Positions 26,288 through 27,154 are shown, numbered from the stretch's first letter. The stretch is DNA of 32,000 nucleotides from Methanothermobacter thermautotrophicus str. Delta H (GCF_000008645.1 NC_000916.1:1680001-1712000), one strand, 5' to 3'. The notes: generated from the letters alone by a model not told the origin. Program-made: numbers and translations.

Positions 26288-27154
26288 ATGCCAGATCAGA
26301 GACAGACAAGATTTGCACACATAACAAAGGCCCACCCATGCTTTAACGAGAAACTGCATGACAGGGTTGGAAGGGTACATGTTCCAATAGCACCCCGCTG
26401 CAACATTCACTGTAAATTCTGCACCAGGGACATAAATGAATGTGAAAGACGGCCTGGGGTTACAGGAAGGCTCATGACAGCTGATGATGCCATAAAACAC
26501 GTGGAAAAGGTTAAGGAGGAGATGCCAATAAGTGTAATTGGTGTGGCCGGTCCAGGAGACGCTCTGGCCAATGAGGAGACATTCGAGTTCTTCAAAAAGG
26601 CCAGCAAGAAATTCCCGGACCTCCTTAAATGTATGAGCACCAACGGACTTCTCCTACCGGACAGGGCAGATGAACTCGCAGAACTTGGGATTAACACCGT
26701 CACCGTCACCGTGAACGCAGTGGACCCCGAGATAGGGGAGAAGATATACTCCTTCGTCGTCTACAAGGATAAGGTCTACCATGGAAGGGAGGCATTTGAA
26801 GTTCTCTCAAGGAACCAGCTGGAGGGTATTGAGAAGCTCGCTGAGAGGGGGATAATTGTAAAGGTCAACAGCGTCCTCATACCCGGACTCAACGATGAAC
26901 ACATAGTTGACATTGCAAGGGAGGTTAAAAAGAGGGGAGCGTCCCTCATGAACATAATACCACTCATCCCCATGGGCGAGATGAAGGACTACCCGAGACC
27001 AACATGTGAACAGATCGAGAGGGTCCGCAACGAAGTTGAAAAGATAATACCAGTGTTCAGGGCATGTACACAGTGCAGGGCAGACGCCTACGGAATCCCC
27101 GGGAAGAAAGAAGCTGATAAACACCTTGACATGACACCAGCAAGCCACTACTGA
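26288..27154 (+). CDS. nifB: Radical-SAM carbide/Fe-S cluster synthase NifB (minimal, stand-alone SAM domain form)
   Basis: 288 aa. It contains HPCFNEK, the radical-SAM motif CNIHCKFC, GPGDALAN, and the NifB-specific C-terminal CTQCRADAYG. Its GAGGTGA SD motif lies inside the end of mmp17, and the gene starts 4 nt after mmp17. Confidence 0.9.
   Translation: MPDQRQTRFAHITKAHPCFNEKLHDRVGRVHVPIAPRCNIHCKFCTRDINECERRPGVTGRLMTADDAIKHVEKVKEEMPISVIGVAGPGDALANEETFEFFKKASKKFPDLLKCMSTNGLLLPDRADELAELGINTVTVTVNAVDPEIGEKIYSFVVYKDKVYHGREAFEVLSRNQLEGIEKLAERGIIVKVNSVLIPGLNDEHIVDIAREVKKRGASLMNIIPLIPMGEMKDYPRPTCEQIERVRNEVEKIIPVFRACTQCRADAYGIPGKKEADKHLDMTPASHY

Follow-up and report, generated by a model that had tools for sequence, protein, structure and literature searches.

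A nifB gene within the mmp gene cluster of Methanothermobacter thermautotrophicus probably serves the activation of methyl-coenzyme M reductase

In a 32,000-nucleotide (nt) stretch of the Methanothermobacter thermautotrophicus str. Delta H genome (NC_000916.1:1680001-1712000, referred to below as the window), the gene for the cluster synthase NifB stands directly behind mmp17, in a co-directional string of methanogenesis marker (mmp) genes connected with the activation of methyl-coenzyme M reductase (MCR). In Methanobacteriales, nifB is a conserved member of the mmp cluster and not a chance neighbour. We consider it probable that NifB is co-expressed with the mmp genes and that its [8Fe-9S-C] L-cluster is inserted into McrC/Mmp7, and additionally into NifEN/NifDK. 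The original prediction, made from the DNA alone, had proposed that this nifB copy may supply clusters to the Mmp/McrC scaffold; that reading is supported because synteny and published genetics both favour it. The adjacency and the idea that NifB supplies the activator are already published (PMC12176620; Saini et al. 2023). New here are a survey in which the pair was found in 71 of 78 genomes, the persistence of the pair in nif-less Methanobrevibacter and its loss in Methanovirga, the Methanopyri order mmp17-nifB-mmp7 as opposed to mmp17-mmp7, and a promoter-like spacer in Methanobrevibacter.

The open reading frame (ORF) at 26288-27154 (+) encodes 288 amino acids (aa) and is 100% identical (288/288 residues) to PDB entries 7BI7, 7JMA and 7JMB, the crystallised Methanothermobacter thermautotrophicus NifB, deposited under that name. 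The window gene is the well-characterised single-domain NifB of this species; the Methanothrix thermoacetophila protein (6Y1X) shares 50% identity with it. It had been called an unmistakable NifB on the strength of three motifs, and all three were read: CNIHCKFC, the radical S-adenosylmethionine (SAM) motif, HPCF toward the N-terminal end and CTQCRADAYG toward the C-terminal end. The NCBIfam profile TIGR01290 (nifB) matched with E=8e-92 and 308.2 bits, under its cutoff of 343.65 bits, because just profile positions 8-283 of 441 were aligned; the unmatched C-terminal part is presumably the NifX-like domain. Membership is settled despite this score by the complete identity to a characterised NifB. 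Archaeal NifB homologues lack the NifX-like domain (PMC13474568).

The radical-SAM family PF04055 scored 89.6 bits on the window protein, and its CxxxCxxC motif (C38-N-I-H-C42-K-F-C45) was invariant in 80 Methanobacteriales and 66 Methanothrix-like NifB homologues. Across the 80 Methanobacteriales proteins C18, H24, H31, C38, C42, C45, C115, C260 and C263 were all invariant. From the 7BI7 and 7JMA structures we take these nine positions to be the ligands of the RS, K1 and K2 clusters, with C18, H24, H31, C115, C260 and C263 serving K1 and K2. The K1 and K2 [4Fe-4S] modules have two Cys and one His ligand each (Saini et al.). NifB makes the [8Fe-9S-C] L-cluster, or NifB-co (Saini et al. 2023; PMC13474568), and the M. 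thermautotrophicus enzyme supports iron-molybdenum cofactor (FeMo-co) synthesis in vitro (reviewed in PMC13474568). Production of the L-cluster/NifB-co by this NifB is credited to Fay et al. 2015 in PMC12176620.

The surroundings of nifB were annotated by scanning all window ORFs of at least 100 aa with Pfam or NCBIfam. The co-directional string on the + strand runs mmp2-mmp3-mmp6-DUF2111-mmp5-mmp15-mmp17-nifB-mtnA-like. Loci collected from other genomes carry L numbers, and the features of the window are as follows.

18982-19497 (+): PIN-domain (Nob1-like) gene (PF17146, NF009145), the cluster's upstream neighbour in most Methanobacteriales loci
19514-20539 (+): DUF2117 gene (PF09890, 431 bits), directly upstream of mmp2, with synteny kept in L001-L080 and M. 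smithii (L086)
20568-20575 (+): TATA-like box TTTAAAAA, a candidate promoter by prediction only, in a 109-nt gap, 81 nt before mmp2
20649-21641 (+): mmp2, methanogenesis marker 2, AIR-synthase-like (TIGR03267, 574 bits)
21679-23247 (+): mmp3, MCR-associated protein Mmp3 (TIGR03268, 786 bits)
23222-23668 (+): mmp6 (TIGR03272, 176 bits)
23679-24050 (+): DUF2111 gene (PF09884, 125 bits)
24047-24493 (+): mmp5 (TIGR03271, 257 bits)
24468-25724 (+): mmp15, BcrAD/BadFG-type ATPase (TIGR03286, 776 bits; PF01869)
25714-26283 (+): mmp17, DUF2113 (TIGR03291, 268 bits; PF09886)
26277-26283 (+): Shine-Dalgarno motif GAGGTGA for nifB, read from the sequence, overlapping the last mmp17 codons with their TGA stop and separated from the ATG by 4 nt
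26288-27154 (+): nifB, single-domain radical-SAM (identity to PDB 7BI7, TIGR01290, motifs)
27165-28100 (+): mtnA-type (IF-2B family) S-methyl-5-thioribose-1-phosphate isomerase homologue (TIGR00512, 373 bits, cutoff 279; PF01008)
28126-28131 (+): first oligo-T run after the string, between it and the convergent Trm5/Tyw2 gene; by prediction only, a candidate terminator
28135-29193 (-): Trm5/Tyw2 gene, convergent

The core order Mmp3-Mmp6-Mmp5-Mmp15-Mmp17 (21679-26283) consists of NCBIfam equivalog matches, all well over cutoff. From mmp3 through the mtnA-like gene, adjacent genes overlap or lie at most 10 nt apart; two wider gaps precede mmp2 (109 nt) and mmp3 (37 nt). The placing of nifB at the 3' end of the mmp operon proved half right: its adjacency to mmp17 stands, and its position as last gene does not, the mtnA-type gene following 10 nt on. 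nifB is thus the penultimate gene of the string. No NifH, NifD, NifK, NifE or NifN was detected among the scanned ORFs of the 32 kb, in agreement with what had been noticed at the outset, and the nifHDKEN cluster of M. thermautotrophicus lies elsewhere in the genome (MTH1560-1566; PMC3087415). Neither an A2 ATPase nor mmp7 was found in the window or within 10 kb of the 80 Methanobacteriales loci.

The mmp17 stop codon occupies 26281-26283 and the nifB ATG begins at 26288, leaving a gap of 4 nt (agaa). The 4-nt spacing and the ribosome-binding motif inside mmp17 were both as first described, and GAGGTGA is complementary to what we take to be the archaeal 16S 3' end. A regex scan of the + strand found two TATA-like boxes in 18000-28200, at 18678 and 20568, and none between the 20568 box and 28200. 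T-runs of at least 6 nt occurred on the + strand of 18000-29300 only at 28126 and 28157, both past the mtnA-like gene. The sequence GGAA-N6-TTCC, which we take to be the consensus of NrpR-type operators, did not occur in the window (0 matches), where chance alone would give 1.0. From the short gap, the Shine-Dalgarno motif and the lack of TATA-like boxes and T-runs in between, co-transcription of nifB with mmp17 and coupling of their translation are very probable in this genome.

To survey the adjacency, one genome per GTDB species was scanned with a two-sequence NifB alignment. The scan returned 547 relatives, of which the best 80 were analysed, all of them Methanobacteriales; the closest was a Methanothermobacter metagenome-assembled genome (MAG) with 92% identity, and the window's own genome gave no 100% match among them. 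Neighbours at the 80 loci were identified by tblastn with the window proteins, and 78 loci were assessable. NifB served as the anchor: Mmp17 alignments (52 and 20 diverse sequences) held no stretch conserved enough for anchoring, and a degenerate PEGFR-motif pattern for Mmp17 was set aside at an estimated thousands of chance matches. A profile search with the diverse Mmp17 alignment gave best 120 matches that were all Methanobacteriaceae. The second match in the HMMER search, a 5084-aa predicted protein (P0122) with 54 Mmp17-like stretches, was rejected as a low-complexity tandem-repeat translation, almost certainly an artefact.

Of the 78 assessable Methanobacteriales species genomes, 71 had Mmp17 immediately before NifB on the same strand, and the adjacency is not due to chance, because it was found again so widely. 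The order PIN-DUF2117-Mmp2-Mmp3-Mmp6-(DUF2111)-Mmp5-Mmp15-Mmp17-NifB was conserved as a whole in the order Methanobacteriales. The flank downstream of nifB was rearranged repeatedly, and the mmp17-nifB junction was kept. In Methanobrevibacter cuticularis (L079:1499-9024) an insertion of about 7.5 kb separates mmp15 from mmp17, with mmp17 and nifB still together.

The form of the junction varied. It measured 4-7 nt in L001, L004 and L009 and was a 17-nt overlap in L024 and L026, and other Methanobacterium-type loci had AT-rich mmp17-nifB spacers of 150-300 nt; outside Methanothermobacter, the tight 4-nt junction is shared by only a few relatives. In 53 Methanobrevibacter-type loci (L028-L080) the spacer was about 67 nt long and well conserved over 51 distinct sequences (for example L034:711-789), with the consensus AAAAGTTTATATATTTGTTCGTATCAATACAAATTAACAGGAGTTATATT..GGAG.AGTGGTATT-ATG. 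It opens with AAAAGTTTATATATT, which resembles a B recognition element (BRE) and TATA box, and closes with a GGAG..GTG Shine-Dalgarno motif. This suggests a separate promoter for Methanobrevibacter nifB, with a conserved 5' untranslated region, at a position that has been kept.

DUF2111 was present in Methanothermobacter and Methanobacterium loci between mmp6 and mmp5 and absent from Methanobrevibacter loci. Outside this order, in L088:2058-3023 (-) (Methanomassiliicoccales) and L173:1064-2095 (-), it forms the C-terminal domain of a 321-343 aa protein that carries CggR_N/DUF4443 regulator-like domains and is encoded divergently from the A2 gene. There are hints here of a regulatory role for DUF2111.

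If NifB served nitrogenase cofactor synthesis only, its place after mmp17 would be an inherited Methanobacteria gene order without function. The presence of nifHDKEN elsewhere in M. thermautotrophicus (MTH1560-1566; PMC3087415), the capacity of this NifB for FeMo-co synthesis in vitro (PMC13474568) and the lack of the adjacency in most non-Methanobacteriota lineages sampled are all in keeping with such a history. Confinement of the adjacency to diazotrophic strains, which the original prediction had named as a result that would refute it, was looked for and not seen. About 53 of the adjacent loci, counted by record titles, came from Methanobrevibacter of the rumen, gut or faeces, including M. 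thaueri, M. millerae and M. intestini, and M. smithii, seen separately (L086), also has the pair. The vertebrate-gut and rumen clade of Methanobrevibacter is reported to lack the nif operon (PMC13135261), and M. ruminantium M1 is treated as non-diazotrophic (PMC3464626). In these roughly 53 genomes the pair was kept and the nine ligand positions of NifB were invariant.

The seven non-adjacent loci were four from Ca. Methanovirga (L017, L019, L020 and L027), L015, L018 and an unclassified MAG (L039). L015 and L018 are Methanobrevibacter sp. Th196P4 and Po218, isolate names that resemble the labels of termite-derived Methanovirga MAGs. In Ca. Methanovirga procula (L017:5660-12481) nifB lies between MetRS/DUF530 and PheRS genes, and no mmp genes were found near nifB in L015, L018, L019, L020 or L027. 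Ca. Methanovirga, from termites, falls within a nif-retaining clade (PMC13135261). Adjacency is not limited to diazotrophs, because it was kept in the nif-less Methanobrevibacter clade and in M. smithii and lost in nif-bearing Ca. Methanovirga; the pattern runs, if anything, the opposite way. Against a role in nitrogenase synthesis alone stand also the universality and essentiality of NifB in methanogens regardless of nitrogenase (Saini et al.), the lack of a nitrogen operator in the window and the retention of the mmp17-nifB junction beside a repeatedly rearranged downstream flank. We regard that explanation as very unlikely.

A further context came from Methanopyri. In a Methanopyri MAG (L171:8315-12384; 63.5% G+C) the order was Mmp5-Mmp15-Mmp17-NifB-Mmp7, in which the genes overlap or all but touch; nifB overlaps mmp17 by 17 nt and ends 7 nt before mmp7. 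Its NifB shares 39% identity with the window protein and carries HPCY, CNIHCKFC and CMQCRAD. Cryo-electron microscopy of the activation complex places FeSIII, the most surface-exposed L-cluster-like centre, at the Mmp7/Mmp17 interface, ligated by Mmp7 (PMC12176620). In this lineage, therefore, the gene for the synthase is flanked by those of the two proteins between which one of its presumed products is held. The survey shows the mmp17-nifB linkage to be ancient in both Methanobacteria and Methanopyri and not tied to diazotrophy.

In the model that best explains these results, NifB fuses its K1 and K2 [4Fe-4S] modules and adds a SAM-derived carbide and a ninth sulfur, giving the [8Fe-9S-C] L-cluster; this much is established biochemistry for this protein. 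The main, constitutive destination of the L-cluster would be the MCR activation complex, in which three L-cluster-like centres, ligated by McrC and Mmp7, lie at the McrC/Mmp7/Mmp17 interface. When nitrogen is limiting, the L-cluster would also pass to NifEN/NifDK, encoded elsewhere (MTH1560-1566). The place of nifB in the mmp cluster would tie its expression to the activation machinery and not to the nitrogen regulon, so that nifB would be transcribed with the mmp genes irrespective of nitrogen status. NifB was universal in 245 methanogen proteomes, about one third of which had no nitrogenase; it was unregulated by fixed nitrogen, and deletion of nifB failed in M. acetivorans (Saini et al., bioRxiv 2023).

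Several points weigh against supply of McrC/Mmp7 by NifB. No report of NifB-dependent loading, or of NifB-co delivery to McrC/Mmp7, was found in the literature up to mid-2026, and the clusters of the activation complex are themselves described as 'L-cluster-like' (PMC12176620). Co-transcription in this genome is something we infer, and the BRE/TATA-like start of the Methanobrevibacter spacer means that 'operon' may not hold everywhere; the term appears best supported for the window's own genome. A second scan, of metagenome contigs with Methanothrix NifB as the first sequence, gave 80 best loci at 67-95% identity, and no mmp gene was found in their flanks (which exceeded 2 kb upstream in 51 and downstream in 53). 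Nor was there a conserved functional neighbour of nifB in these 80 loci, only unrelated genes, each in 20 loci or fewer. Finally, nine Mmp17-anchored contexts outside Methanobacteria and Methanopyri, gathered by a representative-protein search with cluster and contig look-ups, had no adjacent nifB. Their gene orders were as follows.

Halobacteriota MAG (L084): (A2)-Mmp3-Mmp6-Mmp5-Mmp15-Mmp17-Mmp7
Methanocellaceae (L087): (A2)-Mmp3-Mmp6-Mmp5-Mmp15-Mmp17-Mmp7
Methanomassiliicoccales (L088): (A2)-Mmp3-Mmp6-Mmp5-Mmp15-Mmp17-Mmp7
L173, similar to L088: (A2)-Mmp3-Mmp6-Mmp5-Mmp15-Mmp17-Mmp7
MCR-bearing Archaeoglobales MAG (L085): (A2)-Mmp3-Mmp6/Mmp5 fused-Mmp15-Mmp17-Mmp7, with nifB 9.5 kb downstream, past the mtr operon
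Methanomethylicia-type (L172): Mmp3-Mmp6-Mmp17-Mmp7-A2, with Mmp5 divergent upstream
L081-L083: Mmp5-Mmp15-Mmp17-Mmp7
Nezhaarchaeota (L089): Mmp3-Mmp6-Mmp17 beside mcrBGA
M. jannaschii (L170): Mmp15 and Mmp17 close by, no adjacent nifB

Both A2 and Mmp7 were present in the Halobacteriota, Methanocella, Methanomassiliicoccales and Methanomethylicia loci. The adjacency was seen in Methanobacteria and Methanopyri only and therefore cannot by itself explain the universality of NifB in methanogens. The broader claim, that supply of the Mmp/McrC scaffold would explain the persistence of NifB-like genes regardless of diazotrophy, is borne out in one part, the independence of the adjacency from diazotrophy, but cannot rest on the lineage-limited adjacency by itself.

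Two of these loci held further features of note. The Archaeoglobales locus (L085:11609-20573) is a methanogenesis island in which the mmp cluster is followed directly by mtrEDCBAFGH, by further genes (including CbiX-, FAD-binding- and DUF169-family members) and by nifB on the same strand; this nifB has 50% identity and is partial at the end of the 10-kb flank. The radical-SAM gene that lies two genes beyond mmp17 in M. jannaschii (L170:11133-11993, +; 286 aa) was rejected as a NifB, having no tblastn match, no HPCF and no C-terminal CxxC.

The main rival to supply of McrC/Mmp7 holds that NifB is essential through another client, such as Mmp2/3/5/6/15, a nitrogenase-like Nfl/Cfb enzyme or another protein, and that synteny reflects shared constitutive expression only. 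No experiment on NifB-to-McrC/Mmp7 transfer was found in the literature up to mid-2026, which leaves room for such a client, and Mmp2, Mmp5, Mmp6 and Mmp15 are not in the solved complex (PMC12176620). Saini et al. discuss CfbCD, for which no link to NifB is known. Against another client, CfbD is stated not to contain [8Fe-9S-C] clusters (PMC12176620). L-cluster-like centres in methanogen proteins outside nitrogenase have so far been described only in McrC/Mmp7 (PMC12176620), and the Methanopyri nifB abuts mmp7 itself. On balance another client seems unlikely.

A more specific form of the McrC/Mmp7 reading can be put forward for class I methanogens: beyond supplying clusters from a distance, NifB could dock on Mmp17 and serve the MCR activation module as a stoichiometric assembly factor. 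A NifX-like carrier domain is absent from archaeal NifB, so the part of carrier or receiver could fall to Mmp17, which would load the surface-exposed FeSIII at the Mmp17/Mmp7 interface. The order mmp17-nifB-mmp7 would then be ancestral, Methanobacteria having lost mmp7 and Halobacteriota having lost nifB from the slot. We offer this extension as a speculative one and consider it unlikely.

The downstream neighbour of nifB was also considered as its functional partner. A gap of 10 nt without a T-run separates the nifB stop from the mtnA-type gene, and an mtnA-like gene lay downstream of nifB on the same strand in 54 Methanobacteriales loci. MtnA homologues in methanogens may act on 5-deoxyribose-1-phosphate from radical-SAM by-products, and a functional link of the mtnA-type gene to NifB turnover is conceivable. 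The stronger proposal, that the mtnA-like gene is the partner of nifB, salvaging 5'-deoxyadenosine/methylthio radical-SAM by-products, and that the mmp neighbours are incidental, agrees poorly with the spacing: the nifB-mtnA gap was below 300 nt in only 14 of the 54 loci (median 1.27 kb, maximum 9.4 kb). In Methanobrevibacter, ABC transporter genes and others have come to lie between the two, as in M. smithii, where an ABC transporter separates nifB from the mtnA-like gene, and the link is absent from the Methanopyri locus. We consider this proposal extremely unlikely.

Elsewhere in the window, two tandem genes of the FilR1 family ('methanogenesis regulatory protein') lie at 817-1671 (+) and 1692-2438 (+), and M. 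smithii has a similar FilR1-family pair (L086:1657-3254, -) close upstream of its PIN-DUF2117-mmp cluster. Indolepyruvate oxidoreductase genes at 8503-10946 are consistent with the MTH1852-1853 neighbourhood (PMC3087415).

MCR makes nearly all biogenic methane, and its activation was a long-standing gap. Should NifB supply the activation complex, the pathway to the most complex known iron-sulfur cofactor would have evolved for methanogenesis, or been shared with it, before or alongside nitrogen fixation. NifB would also be a target for methane mitigation. The case as a whole is already in print (Nature 2025; Saini et al. 2023). The window adds no new principle to this picture; it supplies the M. 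thermautotrophicus example.

A NifB homologue was listed among methanogen-specific genes by Kaster et al. 2011 (PMC3087415), and a second function for NifB was suspected by Lie et al. 2022. NifB was put forward as the maker of the activation-complex clusters by Ramirez-Amador et al. (Nature 2025, PMC12176620), and a 2026 Chemical Reviews article restates the link between NifB and that complex. A 2026 preprint names an 'MCR activation operon', all genes of which resisted deletion, as did nifB. A literature search on the locus tags MTH1871, MTH1870 and MTBMA_c04420 found no mention of them.

Compared with known systems, the window NifB shares with bacterial nif clusters, where NifB-NifX fusions are encoded next to nifENX/nifHDK, the enzyme chemistry and a radical-SAM core with K1, K2 and RS clusters, but it has no NifX-like domain, no nif neighbours and no nitrogen operator. 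It differs from the 6Y1X-type (Methanothrix) nifB genes in having mmp neighbours. In Methanosarcina acetivorans and other Halobacteriota the 'MCR activation operon' (A2-Mmp3-Mmp6-Mmp5-Mmp15-Mmp17-Mmp7) has the core Mmp3-Mmp6-Mmp5-Mmp15-Mmp17 in common with the window. There the A2 ATPase comes first, mmp7 fills the slot after mmp17 and nifB lies elsewhere, whereas in the window nifB fills that slot and the cluster includes Mmp2 and DUF2111 and lacks A2 and mmp7. The closest parallel is the sister species M. marburgensis, whose additional mmp genes form a cluster described as 'MTBMA_c04360-c04410, followed by nifB' (Ramirez-Amador et al., Nature 2025, PMC12176620): the same co-directional mmp string with nifB directly behind. 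The window is the M. thermautotrophicus orthologue of that cluster, with no substantive difference; the earlier paper contained no survey of how widely the adjacency extends, and the present survey adds it.

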